Assembly: GCA_044225175.1 (NCBI GenBank)
Contig: JBGAJA010000001.1
Coordinates: 742,711 to 806,710, forward strand
Length of the DNA stretch: 64,000 bases
DNA from: Candidatus Omnitrophota bacterium
GTDB taxonomy: Bacteria; Omnitrophota; Gorgyraeia; Zapsychrales; Fredricksoniimonadaceae
Direction: 5' to 3'
This document shows positions 17,572 to 33,693 of the stretch, one piece after another; position 1 is the first letter of the stretch; every line of letters starts with the position of its first letter. The notes below the pieces were generated by a model. That model had not been told where the DNA came from, did no database searches, and saw nothing but the letters and a program-made list of their open reading frames with translations. The translations under genes were made by a program, and so were the position numbers.

Positions 17572-20500
17572 TTACGACTGATAAACTTCTTCAGGATGGT
17601 TTAGGCCAAGAAACTCTGAGACATTGGTCATTGGCTGAATGTTGGTGATGACGGGTTTAAAACCAGGGGCATTCTGCAGTTTCTGCAACATAGATGGATC
17701 GAGGTTAAATCTGATCTCTTCTCCTGCGTTACGAACTTCCAAAGGAGTTTGATTAGCTGTGAAATCAATACCGCCCTTATTCTGGAACCTCGTAGGTTCC
17801 AGTGGCTTGGTGAGTTGGGCTGGGTCCGTTTTGGGTAAGAGTGTTATGACGGAAAGGAATTGCATAAATCTTGAGAATTTTTTATCATGGGTGAATAAAT
17901 CGTTTTTTGTAAGAACACCAAATTCAAAAGAATCCTTTTGAGCATTACTCTCAAAATATTCAAATAAATGGGCAAGTTCATGAATAGTTGTATTAGTAGG
18001 CTTATGGATCGCTCCATTAGAAGAAATATCCATTCTATGAGCTAATTGAGCATTAATGTACACTTTAGAATGACCCGAACGTCTACTGAACAACCCTTGA
18101 AATGGAGCTTCTGCCTTTACTATAACAACCTGCTCAAACCCTAATTTTTGCCCAATCTTTTGCACGAGACTTAACAAACGCTGTTGTTGAGAATTTAATG
18201 CTTCCTCAGGAATAGCCAGTGATTCAGCACTTATCATGGTGGCAATATGAGACATTCGATTAGCAAGCGCTCCTCTTTGCGCACCCCAAGGATCAACTGT
18301 ATTCAAAGCCTGTTGAAAACCTGCTTCATCTATACCCAAACTCTTGGCTCGTCTTCTGGCTGCCTCTTCAGAAATAGCAGCCTGAGTTTTTATTCTGCGC
18401 ATTAAAAGACTATTTTTGCCATCTTTGGTCTGCACATTCAATTGAGCTAAAAATGGAACCAAAGACTCTTCGAAAGATCGATTTACACCCTTACCTTCAA
18501 ACCAGCCTTTAAGAGTAGTTAAATCTTGATGACTAATAAGATGACCAGCATTAATATCGTTAATCACATCAAAAAGAGACCTTTCTTTTGCCAGAGACCA
18601 TTGTGTTTGATTCTCTGGACTTAAAACATTCCAATAAGACTCTCGCGCAGAGGTTTCCCAATCTCGAGGGATTTGGCTAATATGAAAATCAGGGTTAGTT
18701 AATTCTTGATGGATTAGAGCTTTATAAAACTCGAGGGCCACATACTGTTGAATGACAGGCATAATGACGGCTTCTTGTTCAAATGAACTTCTATTTTGAA
18801 TCAAAGGCAGAGGGATCTGAATAACCAAACGAAGCTCCTCAATATGTTTACGTAAGGATTCTGGAATCAAAGCTAAGAATTCCTTCTTCAAAGACAAACT
18901 TTCAACCCTCAATCCCTTTTTATCAATGATTTGCAATGGCATATCTGAATCTTGAGTGGACCAAAGTTTCAAAGGACCATAGTTGTGCTGACCTATTTTC
19001 AAATCTATTTCTGTTAACAAATTCTTTCCTTTAACTTTGACCTGTTCTTCTGTGATACGACCTTCTTCCTTTTCCTTTTCAACAACCAATTTAAACTGCT
19101 CATTAGAGGCCATCCCTGCAAACATTTTCCATGTATGTTGGCCTAACATCTGGTCAAGCTCAGCAATAGAGCTTTGAGAATTTCTCATTCGTCTTATAAT
19201 GACTCCTTTCGAGAAATCTTGAGGATTGGCAATCCCAACCTTAACAACAAAAACTCGACCCAGAGTTCGATTGACCTTCATCTCAAAGACATAAGCTTCT
19301 TGGCCATTGTTAGCAATCATTTGCACACGATCAACACCAGAATAAATGGTGAATTTACCAGTTCCAAAAAAACCAACTGTTTGGCCATTTTGTTGGTCTT
19401 TTATTTTATTGGACTTGGGGATGAGTAAAGCCAATGCTTTTCCCAGAGGAGGCCCTTGACCATCATCCACAGCTTCTTCGACCAGATCGCCCGTTTGAAC
19501 ATCTTTGTAATAACGCACCAGTAACTTATTAGCCCCTGCATCAGAAGAGTTTTGAGGAATTTCAGCCGCATAGCGGCCTGCTTCACCTTGAACATTCACA
19601 TATTGGCTAATTTCCCGTCTAAGATTAGGATTATCGATCGCCATCATTTGGCCTATATGTTCAGGGGTAAATAATCCTGCAATATCATACATACTCGATT
19701 GATCTATTCCAGAGCGCTTGTCCGCATTGAATTGAGCAATGTTTTCAACAGGAATACCTTCCTCTTTTTGCATAAGCCATTGAATATCTTTGGGCAATTC
19801 CAAGTCTTTCGTTTGCACATGATCAACACGGTTAGTCAAGAAGTCCACAAAAAACTGGGCTTCGCCTAATTCTGTAGCAGAACGGCGATCTGTTGCAGCT
19901 AATACGATTTGTTCTAAAGGTGTATGACTAAAGGCTTCATACCAAAGGGCCAAGTAGGATTCTTTACCCTTGCCTTTTGAAAATAAAAGCAATTTGTTTA
20001 ATTGATCTACTGCAATATCAATACTTTTATTGCCATTTTTTGCGACAAGACTTAAGAATACTACCATCAACGAACAAATATGAACGCTTATCTTTTGTCC
20101 ATAAATTTCATATAAAAGATCCAACATTTCATTAATAGGCTTAACTAAATTGATGGAATGATCGGCTTCTATTTTTAAAGAATATGTCATTGCTAATAAC
20201 CAAGAAGGAATATCAGCATTCTCCAAAGAAATCTTTTCATTCATAGCCATTACAAATATTTGATGGCTTAAACCTCTATAAAATTGATCACCAATCTCAT
20301 TATCAACCAAAGTATGTTCACTGGAAGGAAATAAAGGATTGCCTTTCTTCTTTAAATCTTGTAAACCTCTCAACAGTAGACTCATCTTTTTTATAAAAGA
20401 TTCCACCATAAGGTCATCCAAATTGACATGTTCTTTACCATTAGCTAAAGCATCTTTAAAACGTGTTTTAATCTGCTCTTTTTGCTTAGAATAGAAATAC

Positions 20501-23500
20501 TTGAATATTTCTAATAATTTCCCCTTATCTTTGACTTGAAGGAAATCCAAAACAGGTTGATAGGCTTCTCTAGCACGGGCAACAATCTCATCTCTCTTGT
20601 CTGTCACCTGCTTCCAAAGCATCTCTGCCCTAATCCTTTGTTCTTCTGAAACATCGTTCGCAGGGTTATTAGAGTGTTCATGAGCATATTTTTGAGGATC
20701 AAAAAACCTTATTTCATCTGTTTTAGGATTATGAAAGATAAAAACATTACCATTGATTCCCTGCAATTCAAAATCAGCGGGGATGCCTTTGACATCAAGC
20801 CAGGGATTTTCATTGAAATGCAAGGCATAGCCACCAGAATCTAGAGATGTGAGAACATACCTATTATCTGTGGTGACCCATGAGTCTAACCTATAATCTG
20901 CGTACTTACGCGATAAACGACTGTCCTGAAAACGCATATCAAGAAGACTATTATTTAAAGTATCTTTCTTAAACCATATCCCCTGGGAATAAAACGCTTG
21001 GATCTCCTGATCAGGAACTAAAAGATCACTTGTACTAGAACGATTTAAGTCAAGCCAATAGGTAGTTTCTTGACCGCGCTGATTATCTTTAACGATATAA
21101 ATGTTTCCAACCAACATTCGAGTGGAATCTGGAGGAATCAAATTTGTGGGAACTTTGATAAAATGCTGATCTTTCAAGTGAACAATATCAATCTCTCCAC
21201 TTAGAACAAAGGCTTCCCAGTATTCAGGCAAAATTTGATCATAATTAATACTCACCATATCTCCATTACTCCTGATCTTCCAGATCGTGACATGGTATAA
21301 ATCATTAAAACTACACAAGAAAATTTCATCATTGTTTCTAACAATATTAAATCCTACCTTTGATTCACCAATAACCCTCCCATTCTTTATTAAATAAGCC
21401 TTGAGAGTAGTTTCATCCACAGACGAGTACAAAATAATTTTACCCGAGTGATCCAAAGCTAATTTTTTAGTTTGAATGGTTTCATTAGTTACGAAATTAA
21501 TAATTTGATAGTTTTTAATCCCTGTTTCAGTTGATGTAAACTCTTGAATAAGCACTTCACTGTCCTTTATGAAATATTGTTTTAACGTGTGGTTAGTAAA
21601 GTGTAGAGCATCTATTTCAGCTTGCTCGACACCTCCTCGATCGTTAACCGCTAGAAACACTGTCACTTTATCAGGTGAAGTCATCCTTGGTGTGAATACA
21701 ATAAATTTCCCAGAATCAGAAATAGACACTTCGCCATTAAGATTTTGGTTTATATATTTTTCATTTTTTAGATTATAAATTGATTTTCCATATGGACCTT
21801 CCAGCAGAACAAGCTCACCTTTTACTTCTTTAACTGTTGTATTAGGAGGCACTAAAAAGACGTATTGGGATGCATATAGGGTTTGTCGACCATCATTGCT
21901 TGTAACAACAAAAACTTCCGGCGATATTTCGAGATAATCAACATAAGATATTGGATTTAATTTAGGATTACTCAAATCTCTGAGCTCAATCTTCTGTCCT
22001 TTTCGAAAGCTAGTCCATCGAGTTGCTAAAACTAAAGGAGGATTTTCACTAAAAAAATGATCGATAGGCGCGGTTAGAATTTTGGTTGGTTCATCAGGAT
22101 CCACATAAAGCGCCTTGCCATTGTCTGGATTATAAAACACAAAATATTTGCCATCGAATTCGACTCGGGGATATTCTTTAACAAATACAGGAATTTCACC
22201 TAACCCTCCTGCCTTTAACCCATCACTAATCATATACCGCTCTGATATGGAATTCGCATAAACGATCTTATGGCTCGATTCATCATACGCGCCAGCATCA
22301 ATATTTGGATCTAAACGTGGATTCATCATTCCGAAACTTAAAGTACCATCTTCTAATAAAACAATAATAGTAACCCTAGAAAGAGTTCCAATTAATTTTC
22401 CTTTAAATTTAAATTTTGCAAGCGAATCCTTTAAACTCCATGCTATCGTGTGGGTTGGATTGCTTTCATCAATCAAGAAAGGAAAACGAGGATGCTCATA
22501 AATCTTTCCAAAAATATTTTTTAAATCAAACTCTGCGCCACCTACCCCTAAAATTCCTTCTCCATTAATCCATAAAGCCATAATAGAATTTTTGTAGTTT
22601 TCCGAAAGCAATACTTGAAAAGATTTATCTTTTAAAAAAAACTTATTGGATGCTGTTTTTAATCTAAAGGCCCTATTTCCATCTTTGTCAAAACCTAATA
22701 CAGCTTCTCTATATTTCTCTTCAGAATCATTTAACCATTCCTTCGTTTCTGTGTTATAAAGTCTCACCTGGTCCCCATACGAAAAAATAGCAACTCCAGA
22801 AAGCGGATCAATATAACAAGATTCTGCCTGCGCAATCCCAACTTGAAGATCAACATAATTAGCTGTACCAGAATTTGGTTTTCGTAATTCCATAATCGAA
22901 GAATAGGGATGGAAACTCACCTCTCCTTCAAGATCAGCTAATCTGAGTACTGACTTGTCTTTCATATCAAAAATATGATAGTCATTCATAATACCTTTTA
23001 TTTTAAAAACAATAAATCGACCGTCTGGACTTATTTTCATTTCTTTAATTTTCCTTAATTCTTGGATCTCTCCTTCAAGAAAATTAATATATTTAGATTT
23101 TTCTGTATCAAAAGCTGTATATGAACCATTACTTAACTGATAAAACACATGCCTTCCATCTGGACTTAATATTGGCTCACCTATAGCATCCATCGGGTTT
23201 TGCCATATCAGTTGACTACCCGACTTAAAGACTAAAGCATTGTGGTGGATAGGATCACCTTCAACAGCAACAGCATATTTGTACTCAACCCACATATAAT
23301 CCCCATGTAAAACTCGTATCTTTGTAATTGTTGTTGCTTCACCCACCCATTTAATCTTTTGCCCCGTTGCAATCTCATAAACGTCCCCATTTCTCAACAT
23401 ATATTTCATTCGCGCATCTGCAGGAACATACACTTGTTCTTGAGGTTGTGTCATATCTGGTGGGGTGGTTAAGAACTTCGAAATAGCTTGATTATCTGCA

Positions 23501-26500
23501 GCTCCATCATCGTAAACTTTTAAATCCGGCGTGATAGGAGTATTCATTTTAGCCGTGGGTTGCGGAGCCCCCATTTCGTAACTGGTTGCTGGCTCATCTT
23601 CAGCCAAAAGCTTGATACGTTCCCCTAAGCTTAATAATTCCGTATGTTCATCAGCGCTTAATGGTGATTTACGTCTTTGCTCTAAAAGGTCTAGAAATCG
23701 CTGGGCCATTTGTCTGGGTACAATGACATAGCCATTGGTTTTAATTTTAGGCAAATCGTGGTGTTTTAGGAAATCGAATGTTCTAACATCATAGTTCATA
23801 AACGCTCTTAATGCGTCTGGTGTGAAATCAGCCACGATCAATTCTAATGTCTTTGAACCAAGGGTTTGTTTACTGATTAAATGAAAGTCATTGTATCGAA
23901 CAATGGTGGCACCGATCGATTCAAGCGCTTTTTGGGCGCCCCATTCAAATATATCTTCATTAACAAAGAGAACTTCTTTGCCTTGCTTCATAAGTAATTG
24001 GCCAAAACCTTTCTCATTAGGCAAAAGCACATACTTACCACTAGACTGCAAGGAATTGATCAAACGAGCAATTTTCTTTTTGATCATTCGCTTGATATCA
24101 TTAACCACATAGGCATTTTCTTGATTATCAGCAATCAAAGCTTCTAAGCCAGCCACAAGTGTATTGATGTATTTGATCTTCTGCACATCTCCCATTGGAT
24201 TCTCAAGAATACCTTTGACCATTTGTTCAACAGCCAATTGCATAGGCCAAGGGTTTCGAGCGTCATGATCCGATGGAAAGATGACCTTGTCTCTGGATTG
24301 TTGAACATTGATAAGCGTAGCAAACTCAAGGGCCAAATTTCCTTCAATTACAGAATCAGGATGAGTGGTCTCAGAAAGAGGAATACGCATGATAACTTCC
24401 CCATTTCTAACAAATGCGACAGACCTGCCTGGCTCATGAACATGAATGACCTTGATCTTACGAAGCTCCTCTTGAATGTCTCCTTGTGATAAGCTTTCAG
24501 TTGCCTTTGTTCCCCCTTCACCCGGGACTAACATTCCAGATAACACAGAAATATTCATCCCACTGCCATTATCAACAACCTTGATTTCGTGTTCATTAAA
24601 ATCAATGTTAATCCATTTTTCTTCTGATTTCACAAGTTGGTGTCCACTTGGCACAATAAACTCTCTATTTTCCCATCCATTGATCTTTTCTGTCTGTTGA
24701 TTTAGCTGTGTGGTAATTTTGATGTTTTCTACAATTCCAAAACGACTATGAATATTGTCCTTTAACCATTTTAAAGAATTGACTTGGCCATCCTGTACAA
24801 TGCTTTTGACTTTTCCTATTCTTACAACAGTCCCTTGTGTCATTCCTGGAACTTGGGTGGCCTTAAGAAAATCATCATCAGTCATAGAATAAATTTGTAT
24901 TTGATAAGCCTTATGTTCATCTTTCATGACTGTTAAACGCCAGGCTGGTTTGCCTTCTTGTTTGGTTACAATATCCAATCGATCTCCTGGATCCTCCAAC
25001 CAATCTAAAATTTGTTTAACTCCCTTACCAAACTGACCAATAGAGCCGCCCAATGCATCAATGCTATTAGCAACTGCTTCAATAATCGATTGCCCCTTGG
25101 GGTTTCCACTTTGTAAGCCAATGACAGAATCTAACCGTATCTCTTCATTAGTTCCTGCCTTTAAAGATTTGATCATGGCCTCTGTATAGCCTTGTTTGGC
25201 TAAAGCTTCTAGTGTTTCGATCGGAGATTCCTGACGCTTAAGCTTTTTCTGTGCCCTTAAGAATTCTAAAAGGTTAACCCCATTAAAAGGCAAAGCATTC
25301 CAATAGCTGTTATCACCCACCGGGTTGTCGGGATCAATCCTGGCAGAAACCATGGCTAAATCGCCCATTAAAGCATCTTTGGATATGGATTGAACTGTTT
25401 TAAAAACTTCTCCTAATCCATATTTAGAAGAGTTCAAAGCTAAATCAGCTCCCCCAGAGAAATACTTTCGTGGAATTGATTGATGGGTTATAGGATCAGT
25501 TACTTCTTTGATATAGTTGTAGACGCCTTTTTTGAAAGCGGTCAAGTAACGTTGGTAAATTAATTCGATATCTGTAGGGGCAGGGCTTGTCCCTGCCCTA
25601 GATAGGGCGGGTGTAAAACCCGCCCCTACAATTTTATTCTGATCAATATACACCTTTGCTAAAATCGAATCCCTAATCTTCTTCTTGTACCAGGTAGCTA
25701 GAATCAAAGAACCATACACCTGCCTAAGCTGCACAAAGTTGGCCCCTTCATTGATCTCTTTGGTCAATTCAGGAATAACAACCTCCCGTATGATCTGACT
25801 GTGCAAAAAGGTGTCAGACACCTTTTTATCAACCCGCCCCTTCAAAAAGGTGTCTGACACCTTTTTGGAGGCTACGTAGTCTTCTTCCAACATCACCTTT
25901 AGCCTGGATTCCACTACATAGGCTGTTCCTGCTTTAGCATTCTCATAAACCACTGCCTTTTCAGGGACTATCCATACCTTGTTGAAAGTATTGACTGGGA
26001 TATTGGTTGTTCCATACCTTTTGGCGGATTCTTCATAGATTCTTCTCCAGAATCTCTTTCCTATCTCATCTTCTGGGTACATAAGGCTGGCTGTGATCTG
26101 CTTTAGCATGTAGTCCTGGGCTAATAGGTCACGTCCCATCTCGGTTTGGCCAAAGCTTTCTGGGACAATGCGGTTTTTCTCATAGGGACTTAGATTCACC
26201 CATAGGTCGGCTTCTGGGGTGGTTAAAGAGGCCAAAAAGTACTTGATTAGACGGCTGGATTCTTGCCTTAAATTATGTGCATCAGCGACGGAACGTGACC
26301 CTGGATCTAGGATAAAATCGAAGCGAAAGGGGTTATCTGGATGGACCTTGATTCCTTTGAGTAGAGGTGGGGTCACAGGCGGACTTAAATGCACTCTCAC
26401 CCCAGGCTTAGGCAAATGAATGTCCTGGGCGTACGTCGGCATAGGACCCATACTGGTCACAATAAAACTAACCAAGATGACAATGACTAATGGGGTTTTG

Positions 26501-26547
26501 AGCATATCTATATTACCTTTATATAAATATGCCATATATAAAGTCAT
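17572..26547 (-). CDS. Giant secreted multidomain protein (2991 aa): shared N-terminal module, two GHKL/Hsp90-sacsin-like ATPase-motif regions, PD40-like beta-propeller repeats, C-terminal HExxH, shared C-terminal module
   Basis: Single uninterrupted ORF. Probable true start at Met15 (MLKTPLVIVILVSFIVTSMGPMPTYA-QD signal peptide; AAAGGT ~10 nt upstream). Canonical Bergerat motifs in order: EIPQNSSDAG (I), VDDGQGPPLG (II), GFFGTGKFTIYS (III). An earlier EAVANSIDALGG / DNGSGM region. Repeats of SPDGR(F/H)(I/V)(V/F). HELAHLFEYFE near the C-terminus. Confidence 0.8.
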   Translation of the reverse strand: MTLYMAYLYKGNIDMLKTPLVIVILVSFIVTSMGPMPTYAQDIHLPKPGVRVHLSPPVTPPLLKGIKVHPDNPFRFDFILDPGSRSVADAHNLRQESSRLIKYFLASLTTPEADLWVNLSPYEKNRIVPESFGQTEMGRDLLAQDYMLKQITASLMYPEDEIGKRFWRRIYEESAKRYGTTNIPVNTFNKVWIVPEKAVVYENAKAGTAYVVESRLKVMLEEDYVASKKVSDTFLKGRVDKKVSDTFLHSQIIREVVIPELTKEINEGANFVQLRQVYGSLILATWYKKKIRDSILAKVYIDQNKIVGAGFTPALSRAGTSPAPTDIELIYQRYLTAFKKGVYNYIKEVTDPITHQSIPRKYFSGGADLALNSSKYGLGEVFKTVQSISKDALMGDLAMVSARIDPDNPVGDNSYWNALPFNGVNLLEFLRAQKKLKRQESPIETLEALAKQGYTEAMIKSLKAGTNEEIRLDSVIGLQSGNPKGQSIIEAVANSIDALGGSIGQFGKGVKQILDWLEDPGDRLDIVTKQEGKPAWRLTVMKDEHKAYQIQIYSMTDDDFLKATQVPGMTQGTVVRIGKVKSIVQDGQVNSLKWLKDNIHSRFGIVENIKITTQLNQQTEKINGWENREFIVPSGHQLVKSEEKWINIDFNEHEIKVVDNGSGMNISVLSGMLVPGEGGTKATESLSQGDIQEELRKIKVIHVHEPGRSVAFVRNGEVIMRIPLSETTHPDSVIEGNLALEFATLINVQQSRDKVIFPSDHDARNPWPMQLAVEQMVKGILENPMGDVQKIKYINTLVAGLEALIADNQENAYVVNDIKRMIKKKIARLINSLQSSGKYVLLPNEKGFGQLLMKQGKEVLFVNEDIFEWGAQKALESIGATIVRYNDFHLISKQTLGSKTLELIVADFTPDALRAFMNYDVRTFDFLKHHDLPKIKTNGYVIVPRQMAQRFLDLLEQRRKSPLSADEHTELLSLGERIKLLAEDEPATSYEMGAPQPTAKMNTPITPDLKVYDDGAADNQAISKFLTTPPDMTQPQEQVYVPADARMKYMLRNGDVYEIATGQKIKWVGEATTITKIRVLHGDYMWVEYKYAVAVEGDPIHHNALVFKSGSQLIWQNPMDAIGEPILSPDGRHVFYQLSNGSYTAFDTEKSKYINFLEGEIQELRKIKEMKISPDGRFIVFKIKGIMNDYHIFDMKDKSVLRLADLEGEVSFHPYSSIMELRKPNSGTANYVDLQVGIAQAESCYIDPLSGVAIFSYGDQVRLYNTETKEWLNDSEEKYREAVLGFDKDGNRAFRLKTASNKFFLKDKSFQVLLSENYKNSIMALWINGEGILGVGGAEFDLKNIFGKIYEHPRFPFLIDESNPTHTIAWSLKDSLAKFKFKGKLIGTLSRVTIIVLLEDGTLSFGMMNPRLDPNIDAGAYDESSHKIVYANSISERYMISDGLKAGGLGEIPVFVKEYPRVEFDGKYFVFYNPDNGKALYVDPDEPTKILTAPIDHFFSENPPLVLATRWTSFRKGQKIELRDLSNPKLNPISYVDYLEISPEVFVVTSNDGRQTLYASQYVFLVPPNTTVKEVKGELVLLEGPYGKSIYNLKNEKYINQNLNGEVSISDSGKFIVFTPRMTSPDKVTVFLAVNDRGGVEQAEIDALHFTNHTLKQYFIKDSEVLIQEFTSTETGIKNYQIINFVTNETIQTKKLALDHSGKIILYSSVDETTLKAYLIKNGRVIGESKVGFNIVRNNDEIFLCSFNDLYHVTIWKIRSNGDMVSINYDQILPEYWEAFVLSGEIDIVHLKDQHFIKVPTNLIPPDSTRMLVGNIYIVKDNQRGQETTYWLDLNRSSTSDLLVPDQEIQAFYSQGIWFKKDTLNNSLLDMRFQDSRLSRKYADYRLDSWVTTDNRYVLTSLDSGGYALHFNENPWLDVKGIPADFELQGINGNVFIFHNPKTDEIRFFDPQKYAHEHSNNPANDVSEEQRIRAEMLWKQVTDKRDEIVARAREAYQPVLDFLQVKDKGKLLEIFKYFYSKQKEQIKTRFKDALANGKEHVNLDDLMVESFIKKMSLLLRGLQDLKKKGNPLFPSSEHTLVDNEIGDQFYRGLSHQIFVMAMNEKISLENADIPSWLLAMTYSLKIEADHSINLVKPINEMLDLLYEIYGQKISVHICSLMVVFLSLVAKNGNKSIDIAVDQLNKLLLFSKGKGKESYLALWYEAFSHTPLEQIVLAATDRRSATELGEAQFFVDFLTNRVDHVQTKDLELPKDIQWLMQKEEGIPVENIAQFNADKRSGIDQSSMYDIAGLFTPEHIGQMMAIDNPNLRREISQYVNVQGEAGRYAAEIPQNSSDAGANKLLVRYYKDVQTGDLVEEAVDDGQGPPLGKALALLIPKSNKIKDQQNGQTVGFFGTGKFTIYSGVDRVQMIANNGQEAYVFEMKVNRTLGRVFVVKVGIANPQDFSKGVIIRRMRNSQSSIAELDQMLGQHTWKMFAGMASNEQFKLVVEKEKEEGRITEEQVKVKGKNLLTEIDLKIGQHNYGPLKLWSTQDSDMPLQIIDKKGLRVESLSLKKEFLALIPESLRKHIEELRLVIQIPLPLIQNRSSFEQEAVIMPVIQQYVALEFYKALIHQELTNPDFHISQIPRDWETSARESYWNVLSPENQTQWSLAKERSLFDVINDINAGHLISHQDLTTLKGWFEGKGVNRSFEESLVPFLAQLNVQTKDGKNSLLMRRIKTQAAISEEAARRRAKSLGIDEAGFQQALNTVDPWGAQRGALANRMSHIATMISAESLAIPEEALNSQQQRLLSLVQKIGQKLGFEQVVIVKAEAPFQGLFSRRSGHSKVYINAQLAHRMDISSNGAIHKPTNTTIHELAHLFEYFESNAQKDSFEFGVLTKNDLFTHDKKFSRFMQFLSVITLLPKTDPAQLTKPLEPTRFQNKGGIDFTANQTPLEVRNAGEEIRFNLDPSMLQKLQNAPGFKPVITNIQPMTNVSEFLGLNHPEEVYQS
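25573..25630. repeat. GC-rich double-hairpin palindromic element, copy G1, in-frame inside giant CDS
   Basis: TGTAGGGG-CAGGG-cttgt-CCCTG-CCCTAGATAGG-GCGGG-tgtaaaa-CCCGC-CCCTACA. Terminal inverted repeats TGTAGGGG/CCCCTACA and two internal stem-loops. Encodes ...PALSRAGTSPAPTDIE... Confidence 0.75.
25805..25866. repeat. Two 23-bp perfect palindromes (AAAAAGGTGTC[A/T]GACACCTTTTT) 36 bp apart inside giant CDS
   Basis: 25805-25827 and 25844-25866 are exact reverse complements of each other, and each is self-complementary. They encode the duplicated peptide KKVSDTFL. The spacer contains AACCCGCCCCTT, resembling half of the double-hairpin element. Confidence 0.7.
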
Positions 26548-26585
26548 TTACAAGGGGTGGGAAGGCTAAATGAGAAAACGTTATC

Positions 26586-27365
26586 TTAGAGATTATTAAG
26601 AAGAGAAATGTAGTTTTCAAGGGATATTTCTTCTGGTCTAGCTTTGGGACTAATTTTTAGACGTTCGAGCTCTTTCATAAGCGTGTCATGATCATAATAC
26701 CCTTTAAGAGCATTACTAATAGTTTTTCTTCGTTGCATAAAAGCTGTTTGAATCATTTTAAACAACTTTTCTTCATTATGTGCTTTAAGATTTGGTTTAG
26801 ATTTAGGGATTAAAGAAATGAAACAAGAATCCACCTTAGGAACTGGATGAAAACTGCCTTTGCTAATTTTAAAAAGTATCTTCACATCCATGTAGTACTG
26901 AACAAAACATGATAAAGAACCATAGTCTTTGTTTCCAGCAACAGCAGCTACACGTTCTGCAAATTCAAGCTGTACGGTCATAAATGCCTTTTTAATTTGA
27001 TGTCTTTGCGCAATGATTTTTTCAATGATGGGCGTTGAAATGTAATAAGGAATGTTTCCAAGAACAATTAAATCATTAGGCAAAGTATTCATATCCCACT
27101 TAAGAAAGTCCCCTTCAATGATTTCCAACGACTCCTGAGGATATGTTTCTTTAAGAAATGAAACTAAATTACGATCTTTCTCAACCGCAATAACTTTCTT
27201 AACCAAAGGCAAGATGCGTTGAGTAATGGCCCCTTGACCTGGACCGATCTCAATAACGGTATCATCTGAGTGCAAATCACAAGAATCAATAATCTTTTGC
27301 TGAATACGCTGATCTTTCAAGAAATTCTGACCTAAACTTTTGACGGGACGGTGAGTGTTTTTCAT
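26586..27365 (-). CDS. rsmA: 16S rRNA (adenine1518/1519-N6)-dimethyltransferase
   Basis: 259 aa. LGQNFLKD and SAM-binding motif IEIGPGQGAIT. Confidence 0.9.
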   Translation of the reverse strand: MKNTHRPVKSLGQNFLKDQRIQQKIIDSCDLHSDDTVIEIGPGQGAITQRILPLVKKVIAVEKDRNLVSFLKETYPQESLEIIEGDFLKWDMNTLPNDLIVLGNIPYYISTPIIEKIIAQRHQIKKAFMTVQLEFAERVAAVAGNKDYGSLSCFVQYYMDVKILFKISKGSFHPVPKVDSCFISLIPKSKPNLKAHNEEKLFKMIQTAFMQRRKTISNALKGYYDHDTLMKELERLKISPKARPEEISLENYISLLNNL

Positions 27366-28243
27366 GCGAGTTGAAACGCCAGTTTGATGGCCGCGATCAT
27401 TGAAGAAGGATCAGCTTTATTCTTACCTGCAATATCAAAAGCTGTCCCATGGACAGGAGAAGTACGAACAAATGGAAGGCCTGCGGTAAAATTAACCAAG
27501 TCCTTAAAATACATGCCCTTAATGGGTGCGAGTCCTTGGTCATGATACATAGCTATAATCCCGTCGTATCCTTTGTCATGACAAAAGAATGTATCAGCTG
27601 GAAAAGGACCAAAAGCCTTAATTTTCCTTTGATTTGCTTCTTTAATCGCAGGAATAATCTGTTTAATTTCTTCCTTACCTAGCAATCCCAACTCTCCTGC
27701 ATGAGGATTGAGCCCAAGAACTGCAATACGAGGCTTAGAGATCTTAAACTGTTCTTTCAATGTTCTATGCATTAATTCAATCGATGAAAAAATAGATTTC
27801 TTGGTGATTAATCTTGAAACATCTTTTAAAGCCACATGCCTTGTCACCAAAGATAATCTTAAATTGGAAGAGACAAACATCATGTCAAATTGCTTAACAT
27901 TAAAACTTGAAGCTAAATATTCAGTATGCCCCAAGAAGTTCTTTTGATAATGGCTAACCCTCTCTTTAGATAAAGGAGCTGTAACAAGAGCATCCGCAAT
28001 GCCACCTTTGATCAAATCAATGGCAGTATTTAACGACTTGAATGAACCTTCTCCTGCATTGCGATAAGCAACATCCACGACGGGAAATTTGGACCTTCCC
28101 AAGAGCTTACGGTCTCCAACAAGAATAATAGAACCAAGGCGAGAAATATCTTTATTTGAAAGGGCCTTCAGAATCACCTCAGGGCCAATACCTTGAGGAT
28201 CTCCCATGGTGATGGCGATGGTTTTAATTGCGGATCTCGACAT
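27362..28243 (-). CDS. pdxA: 4-hydroxythreonine-4-phosphate dehydrogenase
   Basis: 293 aa. ITMGDPQGIGPEV, TRHVALKDV, MYHDQGL motifs. Conserved surA-pdxA-ksgA arrangement. Confidence 0.9.
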   Translation of the reverse strand: MSRSAIKTIAITMGDPQGIGPEVILKALSNKDISRLGSIILVGDRKLLGRSKFPVVDVAYRNAGEGSFKSLNTAIDLIKGGIADALVTAPLSKERVSHYQKNFLGHTEYLASSFNVKQFDMMFVSSNLRLSLVTRHVALKDVSRLITKKSIFSSIELMHRTLKEQFKISKPRIAVLGLNPHAGELGLLGKEEIKQIIPAIKEANQRKIKAFGPFPADTFFCHDKGYDGIIAMYHDQGLAPIKGMYFKDLVNFTAGLPFVRTSPVHGTAFDIAGKNKADPSSMIAAIKLAFQLA

Positions 28244-29168
28244 ATGCCTTTTCCCGCAACTTATCTAACCATGTTTTAAACTTAGCACGGAACTGGTCAT
28301 CGAAAAGTTTATTATAAATTTCATTCTTTACATCTTCGATTCCCTGCTTTTGACCAAGAACAATATTTTTAACTTTAAACAAATAGACACCACTCTCTAC
28401 TTCCACTGGCTGAGAAACCTCTCCTTGTTTCAAAGAAAAAACTTCTTTTTCTATGGCAGGGACCATTTGACCTTGCTCAAGCATTCCAACGGAGGGAGCT
28501 TGAGAGTATTGCTTACTGACTTTTTCAAAATCTCCGCTAACTATTAAATCTTTTCTGGCTTGCTTGATTTTATTTAATGCATCTGATTTTCCATCTTTAA
28601 AAGAAATATAAATGGAATCCAAATCATATTGAGACTTACTTTCAAATTCATCTTTATGATTATTGTAATAAACTGTCACATCTTCAGGATTGACAAAATT
28701 TTTGTCTCTTACTTCAAGATCAACTTCATATTTACTTTTCATCTGATTAATAATTTTCTTTTTGATATCTGTGACCGTAACCCCCTGGGTATTGATTTCC
28801 GTTAAAAAAGCATCCTCCGAAGGATACCGACTTTTAATTTCCTTCAATCTTTTTTCAACAACTTCGCCCCTAATCTCAATGCCCTTTTTATTAGCAGCTT
28901 CTAAGATCAACTTGTCTTCAATAAGCTGGTTGACCCCACGCTCTTCGTAAGAAGCAATGATCTGTTGAATTTCTTCAGGAGTTTTATGTTCAACTTTTAA
29001 CTGGCGGTAAATACCAGCAATATAATCCTTTAAATCTTTTAGGGTGATGACTTCACTGTTGACGATTGCAACAATGGCATCATTAATAGGTTTAGCGGCA
29101 AAACTATTGGCAGGTATTATTACAAGCATTAAAACAATAAGAGCAGACATTCCTAATTGCTTAGTCAT
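28224..29168 (-). CDS. surA: SurA-like periplasmic chaperone / parvulin-type peptidyl-prolyl isomerase
   Basis: The ORF track extends to 29237. The likely true start is Met24 (MTKQLGMSALIVLMLVIIPANSFA signal peptide), ATG at 29166-29168 with GGAGA upstream. SurA N-domain-like region plus a C-terminal parvulin-like region. Confidence 0.75.
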   Translation of the reverse strand: MTKQLGMSALIVLMLVIIPANSFAAKPINDAIVAIVNSEVITLKDLKDYIAGIYRQLKVEHKTPEEIQQIIASYEERGVNQLIEDKLILEAANKKGIEIRGEVVEKRLKEIKSRYPSEDAFLTEINTQGVTVTDIKKKIINQMKSKYEVDLEVRDKNFVNPEDVTVYYNNHKDEFESKSQYDLDSIYISFKDGKSDALNKIKQARKDLIVSGDFEKVSKQYSQAPSVGMLEQGQMVPAIEKEVFSLKQGEVSQPVEVESGVYLFKVKNIVLGQKQGIEDVKNEIYNKLFDDQFRAKFKTWLDKLREKAYVEIRN

Positions 29169-31053
29169 TTTTCTCAATCTCCAATTCTTTCTTAAGATTC
29201 TCAATACATTCTTTAAGCATGCGGCAATACAAATCAAAACCTATGGCCGTAATAAAACCATGCTGCTGACTTCCCAGCAAATTCCCAGCCCCTCGAATCT
29301 GTAAATCTTCAAAGGCTATGTGGAAGCCTGCCCCTAAATCACTGTGTTTCTCGATTGCTTTTAATCTATGCTTGGAAACATCTGATAGCACTTCTTTGGC
29401 TGGCACAATTAAATAAGCCCAAGCTTGAATATCTAAACGACCAACTCGTCCACGCAATTGATGTAATTCAGAAAGACCAAACTTGTCCGCCCGGTTAACA
29501 ATCAATGTGTTTGCTGTTGGGACATCAATTCCCGACTCAATAATCGTCGTACAAACCAAAACATCTATCTTTTGTTGTAAGAATTTTAACATAATTTCTT
29601 CTAAAAGACGACCACTCATTTGCCCATGAGCGATCTCTATCCTGGCTTGAGGGGCCAAGGCTTTGACTCGATTGGCAATTGTTTCAATATTGTCCACACG
29701 ATTGTGCAAAAAGAACACTTGTCCCTTACGCTTTAATTCCCTTTTAATAGCCTCTTCAATAATCTCATCATCCCATTGAATAGTCTCTGTCTTAATGGCC
29801 AATCGATTGGTAGGTGGCGTTGATATTACGGACATGTCTCTTGCTCCCGAAAGCGCCATATACAAAGTTCTTGGAATAGGAGTAGCAGAAAGCGTCAAAA
29901 CATCAGCCAAAAGCCGAAATTGCTTTAACTTTTCTTTAGATTTAACTCCAAAACGCTGTTCTTCATCAATAATCACCAATTCAAGGTTCTTAAATCCAAT
30001 ATCCTTAGACAAAAGCCTATGAGTCCCTATCACAATATCGACCTTGCCTTCCCTAAGCTCTCTAACAATAACAGCCTGCTCTGCCTTGGTTCTAAATCTT
30101 GAAAGCATTCCCACTTTAACGGGAAAATTAGCCAGACGTTTAGAGAAATTGATATAGTGCTGTTCCGCTAAGATGGTTGTTGGAACAAGGATAGCGACCT
30201 GTTTGCCATCCATCACAGCCTTAAAAGCAGCCCGCATAGCTACTTCTGTCTTACCATATCCCACATCAGCACAAATGAGCCTATCCATTGGTCTTGGGGA
30301 CTCCATATCCGCCTTAACTTCTGCGGTGGACTTTAGTTGATCAGGGGTTTCCTTAAAAGGAAATGTAGCTTCAAATTCTTTTTGATATTCTGTATCTTTA
30401 GAAAATGCAAACCCACTTAATTGAGTGCGTAATGCCTGAATACGAAGAAGTTCAGCAGCCATAAGCCGCAATCGTTTTTCAATAGACTTTCTAGTTGATT
30501 CCCACTCTTTACTTCCTAATTTATGAAGACTTGTTGAACGCTTAGTAAAAGACACATATTTTTGGACCAAATGCACGTCATGCTTAGGAACAAAAAGCTT
30601 GTCTCCATCCTTGTATTCAATAATCAAATGCTCTTTTTTCTCATTATTTAATTCAAAGTCTCTTACGCCAACGAATCTTCCAATTCCATGATTATTATGG
30701 ACAACAAAATCACCTGTTTCGATATTAACAAAATTATTTAAAGGAATTTCACTAGAGAATACGGAGTTGGAAGACGTCTTAAAGGGAAGGATAATCACAA
30801 TCTGATGGTTTTCAATGATTTGACCACTGGAAAGGTCGAAACCTGAAATAGTTCGGATCACATCATCTTCTGTGTCAAAACGTATAGGAGTTTCAAAATT
30901 GGCTGGATAAATATCAAGAATTCCCCCGCGAAGGGCGAATTCTCCTTCTTTAAAGGCTTTGGTCACACGACTATAACCAAAAACCACTAAGGATTTAAGG
31001 ACATCATCAAAATTAATATTTTGACCTACAATAAATTCTAATGATTTAAACAT
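29161..31053 (-). CDS. mfd: Compact Mfd-like transcription-repair coupling factor / RecG-type SF2 translocase (630 aa)
   Basis: GEFALRGGILDIYP (Mfd D2-like), Walker A ADVGYGKTEVA, DEEQRFGV, TATPIPRT, and Mfd-specific DLQIRGAGNLLGSQQHGFITAIGFDLY. It ends ~20 aa after that motif, so the D7-equivalent region is absent. N-terminal D1 and most of D3 also appear absent. Confidence 0.75.
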   Translation of the reverse strand: MFKSLEFIVGQNINFDDVLKSLVVFGYSRVTKAFKEGEFALRGGILDIYPANFETPIRFDTEDDVIRTISGFDLSSGQIIENHQIVIILPFKTSSNSVFSSEIPLNNFVNIETGDFVVHNNHGIGRFVGVRDFELNNEKKEHLIIEYKDGDKLFVPKHDVHLVQKYVSFTKRSTSLHKLGSKEWESTRKSIEKRLRLMAAELLRIQALRTQLSGFAFSKDTEYQKEFEATFPFKETPDQLKSTAEVKADMESPRPMDRLICADVGYGKTEVAMRAAFKAVMDGKQVAILVPTTILAEQHYINFSKRLANFPVKVGMLSRFRTKAEQAVIVRELREGKVDIVIGTHRLLSKDIGFKNLELVIIDEEQRFGVKSKEKLKQFRLLADVLTLSATPIPRTLYMALSGARDMSVISTPPTNRLAIKTETIQWDDEIIEEAIKRELKRKGQVFFLHNRVDNIETIANRVKALAPQARIEIAHGQMSGRLLEEIMLKFLQQKIDVLVCTTIIESGIDVPTANTLIVNRADKFGLSELHQLRGRVGRLDIQAWAYLIVPAKEVLSDVSKHRLKAIEKHSDLGAGFHIAFEDLQIRGAGNLLGSQQHGFITAIGFDLYCRMLKECIENLKKELEIEKND

Positions 31054-31065
31054 ACTTTATTATAC

Positions 31066-33693
31066 TTAGCTTAAAGGAATATCCAAGAAGGTTTGTGGAC
31101 TTGCAAGTGGAACAATGCGAAGAATCATTGGCTCAATTCCTAAGAAATCCTCACCTTGAAATTGAGCCGTAAAGGCTGGAAATTTCATCTCAATATTTTT
31201 ACCTTCTTTAACAACATCTAATTCCATATTCTTTGAGCTCAAATCAACACCACCAGGATTATTAATCTTGGCAGCTTTTGAATGACTCATAGCAAAATCT
31301 ACTTTCTTACTAAAACCTTCGGGATACTGGGTTACCCCATCTTCTTCTTTTAAAATAATCTGATAAGTATTTCCTGATATTCTCTTATGGCTCAAATATT
31401 TCTCAACCAACTCTGCGAGCTCATCAAGTTTACTATTTAAATCATCAATCTCTACAAAATCATTCCACAGATCATGGGTTAAATTGTTAACTATGGAAGT
31501 CTTTATTCTATTTCTTAGTATTACCCTCTCAGCTTCTCCTATTGGTGGAGCCGTAAATCTAGAGCCTTTCAAAGATTCCGCAATACTATGAGGGTCATAT
31601 GTATCAATCCTCTCAAGCAATAATGAAATTATGTGTTGAACATCAGTCATTGACAAATTTCTTGATAAATCAAGGTTAAAATCACCAGCACCAAGAGGAC
31701 GAATAGTCAATAGATTAAGGGCTTCAAGAATATCGTCGTCTTTTACAAAGGGGAACGCACGTTTCAAGAATTTTCCAAGTTGTTCTTTAACATTTGATTT
31801 AGACATCAGCGGACTCATAGAAAAAAATTCTTTATGAGCTATATTAGCCAAAACAATACTTCTAATTTCTGCAGGGATGTCTGTACTTAGAATATAATTA
31901 GAATCTGTCTTAAAATTGATCGTATGCTTTAGTTTTTCTTGGATTCTAAAGCCCTCTATAGCTGAGCGGATGATCGTCAATATGGGGAGTTTTATGTTAC
32001 CATTGTTATTAAACAATCTTTCTCTGATAAGATTTGCTTCATCCTGAGTTTGATTCTCAAATAATCGATATCTATTATTCTGCATTTGATCAACCTTCTG
32101 CACTAAACGATCAAATAAATTACTATTTTTATAAAAGATCTTTTCTAAAAGCGGCAATCCTTCCTTATCAAGATAATCCGGGTTTTCAAAAGCCTCACGA
32201 AACAACCTGCCGATTACATCTCCTTTCTTAGCAAAACGTATAAATTGTTGAAAATCATAGAATGAAACATTTGAATTCATCGCAAAATCTTTAGATTTGT
32301 TATGTACTCTTGCCATATAGACACTAGCCATAGCCAAATCTCCATTGGCCCCCAGACTATCTTGAGAGGACGCCGTTGAAACACGCTGTAGTACATTCGG
32401 AATCCCCAAGTCTTGAGCTATGCCCCCTGAGAAGTACTTCCTAGAAATTCGCTGGTCTCGGGTTGATTCTAGATCTTCTTTGATGTAGTTAAATACGCCT
32501 TTTTTGTAGGCTTGGAGGTATTGATGGTAGATGGTTTCAACGTCAGATGGTGGGTTCCTCTGGGTCGCTTTCAGTTTCAACCCTGAGTCGCTTGGCAATG
32601 TGCTTGGGGACACGTTCCTGTTGATTTTGACCTGAACATGTCCCCTGGTCGGCGTTGTATAACCAATTCCTTCAATTTTCTTCTTATCTGCATACACCTG
32701 ATTCAATAATGTATTCTTAAGGGTTTGTTTGTACCATGTGGCTAGGATCATGGAATAGAACATTTGGCGCAAGGGGGCGAAGTTTTGGCCTTGGTTGACC
32801 TCGTTTTCTAATTCGGGCAATATGATGTCGCGGATGATTTGGTTTGCTAAGGCGTTGGGGGTGTTTCCCTGGGGTGCTTTCGCATTCAGCGCTGTCTCGC
32901 TTGGCAGCATGCTTGGGGACACGTTCTTATTGGTTTTGTAATGAACATGTCCCCTGGTTGGCGTTTGATTTTTTTCATTAGCTAGATAATCTTCCTCCAA
33001 CATCACCTTCAAATGCGCTCCAACGATATACCCTACGTTATTCCTCTCAAGAACCTTGGCTTTATCGGCTACGATCCATACTTTATTGAATGTATTCACA
33101 GGAATTTGGGTATTACCATAAAGGGCTTGGGCCTTTGCATAAACCTTGTCCCAGAATTTCTTGCCTAGGTCTTTCTCAGGATAAATTAGAGAAGCGGTTA
33201 ATTGTTTGAGGATGTAATCTTGGGCCAGCATGTCTCGGCCTAGCTCGGTGTTCCCTAGTTCTTCAGGAACTATTCTGTCTTTCTCATAGGGGGATAAATT
33301 CACCCAGAGGTCTTTTTCGGGGATAGTTAATGAGGCTAGGAAATATTTGATTAATTTGTTTGATTCGTCTTGTAGGGGTGACCCTTGCGGTCGCCCTTTT
33401 TGGACAGGGGCGAGCCCTGCCACTACGGACAATCCAGAATTCCCTGTATCCACGACGAAATCAAATAACAAAGGATTCTCTGGATGGACTTTCAGGCCTT
33501 TGATCATGACAGGCATATAGGCCTGGCTCAAAGACATCATTTCTCCAGGCACAGGCAATTGTAGGGGCGAGGTTCCCTCGCCCTTAATAGGCCTGGGAAA
33601 CCCAGCCCCTACATCAGCCCAAGTAGAGCGTGGCCCCAAAATGCCTGTAATTATGAAGCACAGGAGAATAACAACAGATGTCATTTTTTTCAT
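31066..33693 (-). CDS. Secreted protein (875 aa), paralogous to the N- and C-terminal modules of the 2991-aa giant protein
   Basis: Signal peptide MKKMTSVVILLCFIITGILGPRSTWA. N-terminal ~400 aa align with the giant protein (e.g. LIKYFLASLT(I/T)PE(K/A)DLWVNLSPYEK(D/N)RIVPE...NTFNKVWIV...LKVMLEEDY). The C-terminal ~70 aa are also related. Confidence 0.8.
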   Translation of the reverse strand: MKKMTSVVILLCFIITGILGPRSTWADVGAGFPRPIKGEGTSPLQLPVPGEMMSLSQAYMPVMIKGLKVHPENPLLFDFVVDTGNSGLSVVAGLAPVQKGRPQGSPLQDESNKLIKYFLASLTIPEKDLWVNLSPYEKDRIVPEELGNTELGRDMLAQDYILKQLTASLIYPEKDLGKKFWDKVYAKAQALYGNTQIPVNTFNKVWIVADKAKVLERNNVGYIVGAHLKVMLEEDYLANEKNQTPTRGHVHYKTNKNVSPSMLPSETALNAKAPQGNTPNALANQIIRDIILPELENEVNQGQNFAPLRQMFYSMILATWYKQTLKNTLLNQVYADKKKIEGIGYTTPTRGHVQVKINRNVSPSTLPSDSGLKLKATQRNPPSDVETIYHQYLQAYKKGVFNYIKEDLESTRDQRISRKYFSGGIAQDLGIPNVLQRVSTASSQDSLGANGDLAMASVYMARVHNKSKDFAMNSNVSFYDFQQFIRFAKKGDVIGRLFREAFENPDYLDKEGLPLLEKIFYKNSNLFDRLVQKVDQMQNNRYRLFENQTQDEANLIRERLFNNNGNIKLPILTIIRSAIEGFRIQEKLKHTINFKTDSNYILSTDIPAEIRSIVLANIAHKEFFSMSPLMSKSNVKEQLGKFLKRAFPFVKDDDILEALNLLTIRPLGAGDFNLDLSRNLSMTDVQHIISLLLERIDTYDPHSIAESLKGSRFTAPPIGEAERVILRNRIKTSIVNNLTHDLWNDFVEIDDLNSKLDELAELVEKYLSHKRISGNTYQIILKEEDGVTQYPEGFSKKVDFAMSHSKAAKINNPGGVDLSSKNMELDVVKEGKNIEMKFPAFTAQFQGEDFLGIEPMILRIVPLASPQTFLDIPLS
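32552..32656. repeat. ~105-bp direct repeat, copy A, inside the 875-aa paralog CDS, with internal inverted repeat GGGGACACGTTC...GAACATGTCCCC
   Basis: Near-identical to 32861-32966. Each copy encodes TPTRGHV..K.N.NVSPS.LPS. The internal ~12-bp inverted repeat could form a hairpin. Confidence 0.7.
32861..32966. repeat. ~105-bp direct repeat, copy B, inside the 875-aa paralog CDS
   Basis: See copy A. About 309 bp separates the copies. Confidence 0.7.
33371..33428. repeat. Double-hairpin palindromic element, degenerate copy P2, in-frame in the 875-aa paralog CDS
   Basis: TGTAGGGG-TGACCC-ttgc-GGTCGCCC-tttttgga-CAGGG-gcgag-CCCTG-CCACTACGG. Same termini and architecture as G1, with a degenerate 3' end. 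Encodes LAPVQKGRPQGSPLQDE. Confidence 0.55.
33560..33613. repeat. Double-hairpin palindromic element, copy P1, in-frame in the 875-aa paralog CDS
   Basis: TGTAGGGGC-GAGG-ttc-CCTC-GCCCTTAATAGG-CCTGGG-aaa-CCCAGC-CCCTACA. Encodes GAGFPRPIKGEGTSPLQLPV just after the signal peptide. Confidence 0.75.

Follow-up and report, generated by a model that had tools for sequence, protein, structure and literature searches.

A very large Omnitrophota protein family with conserved N- and C-terminal modules around exchangeable cores

Based on homology searches started from a stretch of 64,000 nucleotides of Candidatus Omnitrophota DNA (contig JBGAJA010000001.1; the whole stretch is called the window here), we found that two of its genes are members of one very large, Omnitrophota-specific protein family. 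These genes encode a protein of 2991 amino acids (aa), here the big protein (open reading frame (ORF) at 17572..26547, minus strand; database entry P0163), and one of 875 aa, here the small protein (ORF at 31066..33693, minus strand; database entry P0001). The layout of the family is fixed, and we regard it as secure: a signal with an A-x-A↓Q site (the arrow marks cleavage), an N-module of ~350 aa, a variable core or cargo, and a C-module of ~65 aa at the extreme C-terminus. The family is a very large new case of conserved sorting modules combined with a variable passenger and has no detectable relation to known systems. It carries no name in Pfam, NCBIfam or the searchable literature and is apparently undescribed. 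We propose that the N- and C-modules form a phylum-specific pair of handles that would give diverse cargos a common extracytoplasmic fate, with D-x-A-M motifs as junction or processing sites, and we judge the case for and against this proposal to be evenly balanced.

Conserved ends and unrelated cores in the window proteins

The initial annotation of the window had described the two ORFs as secreted paralogues with similar ends and unrelated central regions. The ORFs are as described, and the N-terminal similarity was borne out by BLASTP, in which aa 22-401 of the big protein aligned with aa 7-457 of the small protein at 44% identity and 60% positives (E 2e-105), with 19% gaps that are mostly in-frame inserts of palindromic elements. 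Over the last ~70 residues the pairwise similarity was weak (21% identity, E 0.001). It is nevertheless real, as a profile hidden Markov model (HMM) built from the C-termini of 112 homologues detected the C-module at aa 2923-2987 of the big protein (66 bits, E 1e-22) and at aa 811-872 of the small protein (71 bits). The test of the big protein was independent because this protein is absent from the profile. The central regions are unrelated, with no high-scoring segment pair better than E 0.5 between the cores in BLASTP. When the window was scanned in six frames with the two HMMs, no carrier of an N- or C-module turned up beyond these two ORFs.

In the big protein the N-module spans aa 41-405 (25333..26427, minus strand), belongs to type A (WIVPEKA subtype) and ends in a GDLAMVSAR strand; its C-module (17587..17781, minus strand) is of the 'QNAPGF' subtype. 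The N-module of the small protein, aa 27-465 (32299..33615, minus strand; family HMM 585 bits), belongs to type B, ends in the strand LAMASVYMAR and is broken by four in-frame repeat-element inserts, and the C-module (GGVDLSSKNMELDV...ILRIVPLASPQTFLDI) lies at 31078..31263 on the minus strand. The big protein probably starts at M15, at position 26505 (MLKTPLV...), and its database entry begins at M5 and has 2987 aa. The database entry of the small protein begins at M4 and has 872 aa.

Size and distribution of the family

With the N-module of the big protein as query, a phmmer search that was exhaustive over 1.84 billion cluster representatives (clusters at 50% identity) returned 8,059 clusters at E<=1e-3 and 6,131 at E<=1e-30. 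The matches always lay at residues ~1-400, in proteins of ~500 to 3,414 aa. The small protein gave more than 4,052 significant matches at the least in a 90%-identity database, covering just the N-terminal ~45-58% of the query, and among the matches listed all named ones came from Candidatus Omnitrophota/Omnitrophica bacterium. The GTDB species genomes contain at least 592 N-module loci. The best 80 of these all lie in metagenome-assembled genomes (MAGs) labelled Omnitrophota, barring some automatic 'Planctomycetales' labels and one Elulimicrobium, and a single MAG holds as many as 8 of the 80. A wider search for the N-module had been proposed as a check on the initial annotation, and these searches yielded thousands of further members in Omnitrophota. 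Four members (P0001, P0163, P0018 and P0058) lie on what is presumably one contig, the window's own.

The Elulimicrobium case (L076, DYOU01000064.1) is an N-module locus whose contig, 6.3 kb long, belongs to a MAG with the label Candidatus Elulimicrobium, of the Patescibacteria group; it may come from misbinning or be an infrequent case outside Omnitrophota. An association of the family with phages was rejected, since 2.9 million viral contigs contained just 3 N-module loci.

Neither module matched Pfam or NCBIfam in the two window proteins, and both modules remained unmatched in a Pfam scan of 41 relatives. Together with sequence searches of the PDB and Foldseek searches against PDB structures, this led us to reject an identity with known domains. 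The initial annotation had allowed that the N-terminal similarity might be a widespread known domain with many unrelated partners and that the C-terminal similarity might not be significant in profile comparison. The N-module did prove widespread, with many unrelated partners, yet it is no known domain in Pfam, NCBIfam or the PDB, and the C-terminal similarity is significant by profile. In the full-text literature we found no description of the family, of its modules or of the D-x-A-M motif, and a term search in Seymour et al. 2023 (PMC10066038) returned nothing on signal peptides, secretion or effectors.

Coupled ends and swapped cores

The C-module was present in 237 of 267 sampled proteins with an N-module, never in more than one copy, and its end lay at a median of 3 aa from the C-terminus of the protein in this sample. 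Among 120 homologues, 112 ended in the pattern GGIDLNaknMxLdVxKdGxGiemkFDPAMvaeFqxGdFxGvxPvIlxItPIxsplpxLGL. Many members run 5-20 aa past the C-module with a recurrent ...[LV]A[KG][GVL] tail (e.g. ...LAKG, ...LAGV); the window proteins have no such tail. In 81 fetched loci, 58 ORFs carried both modules and six the C-module without the N-module; most of these six were truncated where the locus ends or broken by a change of frame, and at least one (L046, 532 aa) had no such explanation. A homologue search with the C-module profile gave short fragments only.

For the 237 proteins with both modules, the pairwise identities of the N- and C-modules were correlated (r = 0.75), and core similarity at E<1e-3 was detected in just 125 of 27,966 protein pairs. 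Where the N-modules were at least 75% identical, the cores were unrelated in 693 of 720 pairs (96%). As an example, P0041 and P0047 have N-modules 92% and C-modules 80% identical around cores of 805 and 917 aa without any match. Core length in this set ranged from 100 to 2,990 aa. The cassette layout of conserved ends and a variable payload that the initial annotation had seen in two genes is therefore correct and far more general: the N-module occurs in 8,059 clusters, and in the 237 proteins the N- and C-modules co-vary and the cores are swapped. The N-modules fall into two subtypes, type A (as in the big protein) and type B (as in the small protein). The 'QNAPGF' C-subtype occurred with none of 92 type B N-modules and was found with type A or with N-modules that the motif test left unclassified.

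Identity between N-modules is 45-90%. Numerous polar positions are invariant (N, S, E, T, D, K, Q, R), and one His is nearly so. Within genomes the N-module identity was 66.7%, versus 60.3% between genomes, and for 16 of 70 N-modules the best match lay in the same genome. Concerted evolution as the cause of the similarity is weakly supported by these values, and the paralogues are old rather than homogenised.

Predicted export signal

For the big protein a Sec signal peptide is predicted at aa 15-40 (MLKTPLVIVILVSFIVTSMGPMPTYA↓QD; 26428..26505, minus strand), from a hydrophobic segment with a Kyte-Doolittle value of 2.09 and the family consensus, and for the small protein at aa 1-26 (...PRSTWA↓D; 33616..33693, minus strand). 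Cleavage is predicted after aa 40 (TYA↓QD) and after aa 26 (TWA↓D), respectively. A K or R within the first 15 residues was found in 249 of 269 members and a strongly hydrophobic N-terminal segment in 208; 176 of the 269 had no further transmembrane-like segment. The twelve residues ahead of a conserved LPxPG have the consensus G-P-[PL]-P-x-A-x-A-Q-[ED]-[FL]-x, so that the family signal reads A-x-A↓Q-[ED]-[FL]-x-LPxPG, a classical signal peptidase I site that points to Sec export. The earlier designation of the two proteins as secreted stands as far as the N-terminal hydrophobic segment and the family-wide A-x-A↓Q consensus go; it is a deduction from sequence, with these features in place of a dedicated signal-peptide predictor.

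A different fate would follow if the N-terminal segment were an uncleaved anchor that tethers cytoplasmic enzymes to the inner membrane, so that the proteins would not be exported at all and would be a counterpart of the giant proteins of the phylum. Omnitrophota giant multi-enzyme proteins of at least 10,000 aa are described in one preprint (West-Roberts et al. 2023, bioRxiv 10.1101/2023.11.21.568195), and in a second they are described as membrane-anchored (Nielsen & Lui 2026, bioRxiv 10.64898/2026.06.07.730766). In both, methyltransferase, HATPase_c, HAD, response regulator and HD domains, which dominate the giant proteins, and PPDK domains stand behind signal peptides or transmembrane helices. 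The giant proteins, the nearest background to our family in print, resemble it in their phylum, in signal or membrane targeting and in the same repertoire of cytoplasmic-type domains, and this shared repertoire, together with the cytoplasmic type of the enzymes themselves, speaks for a membrane anchor. The family differs from them in size (0.5-3.4 thousand aa) and in its fixed end-cap layout, and the accessible text of the preprints does not describe the N- and C-modules or D-x-A-M. Moreover, a positively charged n-region, an h-region of 15-20 aa and a strongly conserved A-x-A↓Q c-region are typical of a Sec signal that is cleaved and leaves most of the protein outside; to keep it in the cytoplasm, the orientation would have to be reversed. 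We give the anchor little credence.

Predicted structure of the modules

An AlphaFold2 (AF2) model of the small protein, based on an alignment of 73 sequences, had a mean predicted local distance difference test (pLDDT) value of 66. The N-module elements and the C-module were modelled with confidence, whereas the core and the repeat-element inserts were of low confidence. The C-module was predicted as beta-beta-alpha-beta-alpha with pLDDT 76-93. The N-module of the big protein, modelled alone (pLDDT 75, predicted template modelling score 0.67), was a mixed alpha/beta domain with three beta-hairpins and about eight helices. In the models the strand that starts at the first DLAM is a confident part of the N-module (aa 453-462 of the small protein, pLDDT ~95; aa 398-403 of the big protein). 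A structure prediction for the N-module had also been suggested with the initial annotation; Foldseek gave no fold match in the PDB for the N-module or the whole 875-aa protein (best E 0.59). PDB sequence searches gave no match for the N-module or for the whole 875-aa protein, and for the whole big protein a marginal match to the cargo alone (HSC82, E 0.23). The N-module, as modelled, appears to be a fold without a solved relative.

The D-x-A-M motif

In the family cores the motif D-x-A-M-x-[AST] was observed 603 times against 26 expected (23-fold). In the first 121 proteins D-x-A-M was enriched 21-fold, and the enrichment was specific to Met at position four. The motif was not enriched in ORFs outside the family at these Omnitrophota loci (15 observed, 22 expected) or in the other window proteins (2 observed, 1.2 expected). 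The 249 internal copies carried information at six positions only, D-[ARQS]-A-M-[TANK]-[ASTG]. D-x-A-M stands beside the end of the N-module in 71% of members, typically as GDLAM[AV]S, and within 30 aa before the C-module in 47%. The ends of core segments common to members were 3.4-fold enriched within 15 aa of a D-x-A-M compared to random positions. Judged by these distributions, D-x-A-M marks module and domain junctions in the family cores.

The big protein has a single copy, D396 LAM, within the last strand of its N-module (25351..25362, minus strand). The small protein has three, all on the minus strand: D452 LAM (32329..32340), D469 FAM where the core begins (32278..32289) and D799 FAM, 12 aa ahead of the C-module (31288..31299).

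In the D-x-A-M codons Asp usage equals the background and all four Ala codons are present, and therefore selection on the motif acts on the peptide; a recombination site at the DNA level was rejected on the same grounds. An origin as a ribosome-binding site and start codon left over from fused genes was also rejected, as gene starts in the window are A/T-rich at positions -3 to -1 and not GCN. We further rejected the idea that the N-module tail (YFSGG...GDLAM) arose by duplication together with the initial half of the C-module (GGIDL...FDPAM); hhalign gave the match a probability of 29%, with D-x-A-M alone aligning.

The family-specific occurrence of the motif at junctions would also suit an autoprocessing polyprotein, in which the N-module would be a protease (e.g. 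Ser/Lys- or His-dependent) that recognises D-x-A-M strands, cuts the exported precursor there and sets the cargo units free, with the C-module as a pro-domain or regulatory cap. In the models the first D-x-A-M forms a confident beta-strand docked on the N-module, and the invariant polar residues and nearly invariant His amount to a conservation unusual for a passive tag. Because the conservation of the N-module is so high, this enzymatic alternative stays alive. Nonetheless, neither Pfam nor NCBIfam nor the PDB gave any similarity to protease families, and among Cys and His residues none is invariant; a catalytic constellation was not identified either. In addition, ~29% of members have no D-x-A-M near the end of the N-module, about half have none before the C-module, and the big protein has its single copy. 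We consider autoprocessing improbable.

Cargos

The core of the big protein (aa 406-2918; 17794..25332, minus strand) has conserved blocks at aa ~421-1000 and ~1970-2910 and a variable part at ~1000-1970. It has 11 relatives, all large Omnitrophota proteins of 2.3-4.2 thousand aa. Five of these share the N-module, the C-module and both core blocks at 30-43% identity, one has the N-module without a detectable C-module, and five have the same blocks without N- or C-modules. Because the blocks occur with and without the handles, the big cargo is a conserved functional unit inside and outside the family frame.

Within the second block, a domain similar to the GHKL ATPases of Hsp90 and sacsin lies at aa ~2310-2440 (19228..19620, minus strand). 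Its motifs follow in order, with the N-box EIPQNSSDA at 2329, G1 DDGQG at 2361 and G2 GFFGTGK at 2392, at positions that are invariant in 8 relatives, and a profile of the block matched Hsp82/Hsp90 N-domains in the PDB (E 9.3e-5). The big cargo thus shows both the ordered N-box, G1 and G2 and the Hsp90 profile similarity by which a GHKL (Bergerat) fold is recognised. The NCBIfam sacsin model NF047352 scored 19.2 bits (E 0.0012), below its curated cut-off of 50 bits, which indicates similarity and not membership. In the first block, aa 475-760 (24268..25125, minus strand) contain the GHKL-like motifs EAVANSIDA and DNGSGM and are marginally GHKL (profile against PDB: GyrB E 0.019, HtpG E 0.045). 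Near the C-terminal end of the core lies the HExxH sequence HELAH (aa 2856-2860; 17968..17982, minus strand), and an HExxH occurs near the matching position in 11 of 12 related proteins; the region, a possible zincin metallopeptidase, matched Pfam ATLF weakly (E 0.064).

The core of the small protein (aa 466-810; 31264..32298, minus strand), predicted to be helical at low confidence, was without a homologue in a collection of 320 family proteins and had no match in Pfam or the PDB. In the window, the family layout is thus filled by an Hsp90/sacsin-like GHKL ATPase and HExxH cargo on the one hand and an orphan cargo, predicted to be helical, on the other. Of 41 further members compared with Pfam, most had no match; the domains detected in the others were GGDEF, Pkinase, PP2C, HTH_3, methyltransferases, HATPase_c, HEAT and S8. 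Downstream of the N-module in the matches to the small protein, Pfam content was most often none, and otherwise PGK, HAD, response regulator, sigma54-AAA, methyltransferases, PPDK, HD, TPR, HATPase_c, M28 and DnaJ.

In the arrangement that we propose, Sec would export the preprotein and the signal peptide would be removed. The N- and C-modules would then act jointly as a pair of handles for very different cargos and be recognised by a machinery common to all of them, for sorting, secretion or anchoring, possibly with delivery of the cargos to the host or prey cell of host-dependent nanobacteria. New members would arise by replacement of the cargo between the two handles, and the D-x-A-M motifs would be domain-junction signals, most plausibly processing or docking sites. 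Omnitrophota are widespread, uncultivated and ultra-small, and probably live attached to other cells or as their predators. A host-dependent lifestyle is proposed for the phylum in two sources (PMC10066038; bioRxiv 10.1101/2023.11.21.568195), and for this reason intracellular-type cargos would fit a delivery into another cell. In a stronger version the N- and C-modules would be the recognition handles of a sorting and delivery route unique to Omnitrophota, which would export thousands of ATP-, S-adenosylmethionine (SAM)- and DNA-dependent enzymes of cytoplasmic type and possibly inject them into host or prey, with D-x-A-M as a processing or docking code at domain junctions and the N-module as a new fold; this version is tentative, and we lean against it.

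Several points weigh against handles for a common extracytoplasmic fate. Most of the recognisable cargos (ATPases, kinases, SAM methyltransferases, HTH, PGK) need cytoplasmic cofactors or substrates and are odd outside the cell, and this intracellular character is the main argument against a simple periplasmic or surface function. Cytoplasmic-type cargos behind a signal therefore call either for the assumption of host delivery or for doubt about export, and the signal peptide itself is predicted from the consensus. No secretion machinery was linked to the family in the gene neighbourhoods, and one ShlB/TpsB-like neighbour was seen once. The conservation of the N-module lies well above that of typical sorting domains, which suggests that an enzyme or a structural role with many contacts fits at least as well, and shared descent alone can account for the co-variation of the N- and C-modules.

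Family loci and anchoring

No recurrent neighbour gene family was found in more than 7 of 80 related loci, and example loci of the family sit amid housekeeping genes. At one locus (P0073) a minimal member (536 aa with a core of 100 aa) stands ahead of a protein of 1,165 aa without Pfam match, and next comes a ShlB/POTRA_2 (TpsB-type) outer-membrane transporter; this arrangement, with the transporter two genes downstream, was seen once only.

Many paralogues per genome amid housekeeping genes, with no immunity or transporter partner, would also be expected of an envelope-anchored, displayed proteome, in which the N-module, alone or with the C-module, would bind peptidoglycan, an outer-membrane protein or a surface layer in the manner of SLH or CWB2 domains. 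The predicted Sec signal, the conserved handle on a freely varying payload and the age of the paralogues (16 of 70 N-modules with a best match in the same genome) are consistent with this. The cargos are signalling, ATP- or SAM-dependent and DNA-binding proteins, however, and not typical surface hydrolases or adhesins, and no similarity was found to SLH, CWB2, LysM, OmpA or other anchoring domains. Anchoring also leaves the second conserved module at the C-terminus and the D-x-A-M motifs without explanation, and appears unlikely to us.

Comparison with known systems

The initial annotation had likened the two proteins to polymorphic toxins or effectors, that is, cassettes with cognate immunity used in conflict between bacteria. 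As in Rhs and CdiA proteins, in which a conserved trafficking part is combined with a swapped payload, the design is modular, with conserved ends and unrelated payloads. The family is also a large paralogous expansion, and the big cargo contains an HExxH motif. The likeness fails on several counts. The payload is internal instead of forming the C-terminal tip, and the C-terminal ~65 aa are conserved in both proteins and in the large majority of relatives (237 of 267). No immunity-like small ORF was seen adjoining either gene, as had been noted before (a 4HBT/YbgC-like thioesterase lies 3' of the big gene and an mfd-like gene 3' of the small one), and no recurrent neighbour emerged in the 80 loci. 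Polymorphic-toxin domains (RHS, TPS/haemagglutinin, LXG, PT-TG, pre-toxin, RTX) were found neither in the two proteins (Pfam, NCBIfam) nor in 41 relatives (Pfam). Finally, the big cargo, with relatives at 30-43% identity in other MAGs, some of them without handles, is not a rapidly replaced tip. A polymorphic toxin system is thus very unlikely. A broader reading as effectors may still hold, since domains of intracellular type follow a Sec signal.

Similarly to cargo proteins of the type IX secretion system (T9SS) of Bacteroidota, the family combines a Sec signal and a diverse middle with a small conserved C-terminal domain, and has many scattered paralogues per genome with no dedicated partner gene beside each. 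It belongs to another phylum, though, and its cargos are intracellular-type domains. No match to a T9SS C-terminal domain or Por_Secre_tail was found in Pfam or NCBIfam (E<=0.1), the C-module is predicted as beta-beta-alpha-beta-alpha and not as an all-beta sandwich, and there is an extra N-module of 350 aa.

MARTX toxins have conserved N- and C-terminal regions around an exchangeable array of effectors, with sets that differ between near-identical scaffolds and with short processing sites between the domains. In contrast to them, our family has no RTX repeats and no cysteine protease domain that Pfam could find (HemolysinCabind, CPD), and it has a Sec-type signal where MARTX uses type I secretion. 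It also differs in scale: its proteins have 0.5-3.4 thousand aa, its distinct cargos number in the thousands, and there are multiple paralogues per genome, with as many as 8 of the best 80 loci in one MAG. The PE/PPE proteins of mycobacteria likewise form a large paralogous family with a conserved N-domain for secretion and variable downstream regions. They show no sequence or fold similarity to our family, have no Sec signals, use ESX/type VII secretion and lack a C-terminal cap.

The N-terminal TPS domain of TpsA proteins (beta-helix, Haemagg_act) was not found by Pfam in the two proteins or in the 41 relatives, and the AF2 model was mixed alpha/beta instead. The C-terminal beta-barrel of classical autotransporters (~250-300 aa) was not found by Pfam either, and the conserved C-terminal unit has just ~65 aa. 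A TpsB (ShlB/POTRA_2) transporter gene was not found among the window ORFs scanned, about 20 of the ~45 larger ones.

With ~8,000 clusters, several to many copies per genome, one pair of end modules around a great variety of intracellular-type domains and a predicted export signal, the family is a strong candidate for the main interface of the phylum with its surroundings. It offers three searchable markers, the HMMs of the two modules and the D-x-A-M motif, with which the repertoire can be catalogued and a machinery that recognises the handles can be sought.

In-frame palindromic and repeat elements

The palindromic elements are double hairpins of ~55 nt (GTAGGGGC...GCCCCTAC) and were correctly reported as confined, within the window, to the two genes and one intergenic site. 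In-frame copies lie in a loop of the big N-module (25574-25629), in a loop of the small N-module (33372-33426) and just past the signal-peptide site of the small protein (33561-33612); the intergenic copy lies at 36624-36680. All three in-frame elements are inserted in low-confidence loops of the N-modules. They recall the in-frame palindromic elements of Rickettsia.

The small gene further contains two copies of a ~108-nt repeat (32549-32656 and 32858-32965, within 32549..32965; 79% identical). Each encodes an insert of ~36 aa, TPTRGHV..NVSPS.LPS, and the two inserts lie in different loops of the small N-module. In the big gene, 25804-25867 hold a perfect pair of 24-nt inverted repeats, by which KKVSDTFL is encoded twice. 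Peptide footprints of other in-frame repeat types (e.g. TPTRGHV...VSPSTLPS, VIPAKAGIQ) were seen in N-module loops of homologues from other MAGs.

Other genes of the window

The big and small genes are separated by 4,518 bp, in agreement with the 4.5 kb reported before, and the gap holds the same four genes, ksgA/RrnaAD, pdxA, a gene for a SurA-like peptidyl-prolyl isomerase and one for a short Mfd-like helicase (630 aa). Flanking genes are gatCAB, the 4HBT thioesterase gene, secDF and trpE. The Mfd-like ORF (29161-31053, minus strand) has UvrB_inter, CarD_TRCF_RID, DEAD and Helicase_C domains, and the C-terminal part that TRCF usually has is missing. At its 3' end it shares 77 nt with the SurA-like ORF (28224-29237, minus strand), which starts with TTG.

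The regions 52496-58870 (plus strand) and 60409-62577 (minus strand) hold four histidine kinases of ~530 aa with an N-terminal 7TM domain (HisKA_7TM, HisKA and HATPase_c), which follow each other in tandem with overlapping stops and starts. Near them are encoded one more 7TM kinase, which has GAF domains, and an HD_5 protein of HD-GYP-like type. A complete three-domain LigD (phosphoesterase, ATP-dependent ligase and primase-polymerase) is encoded at 5769-8285 on the minus strand, in an Omnitrophota genome that appears small.

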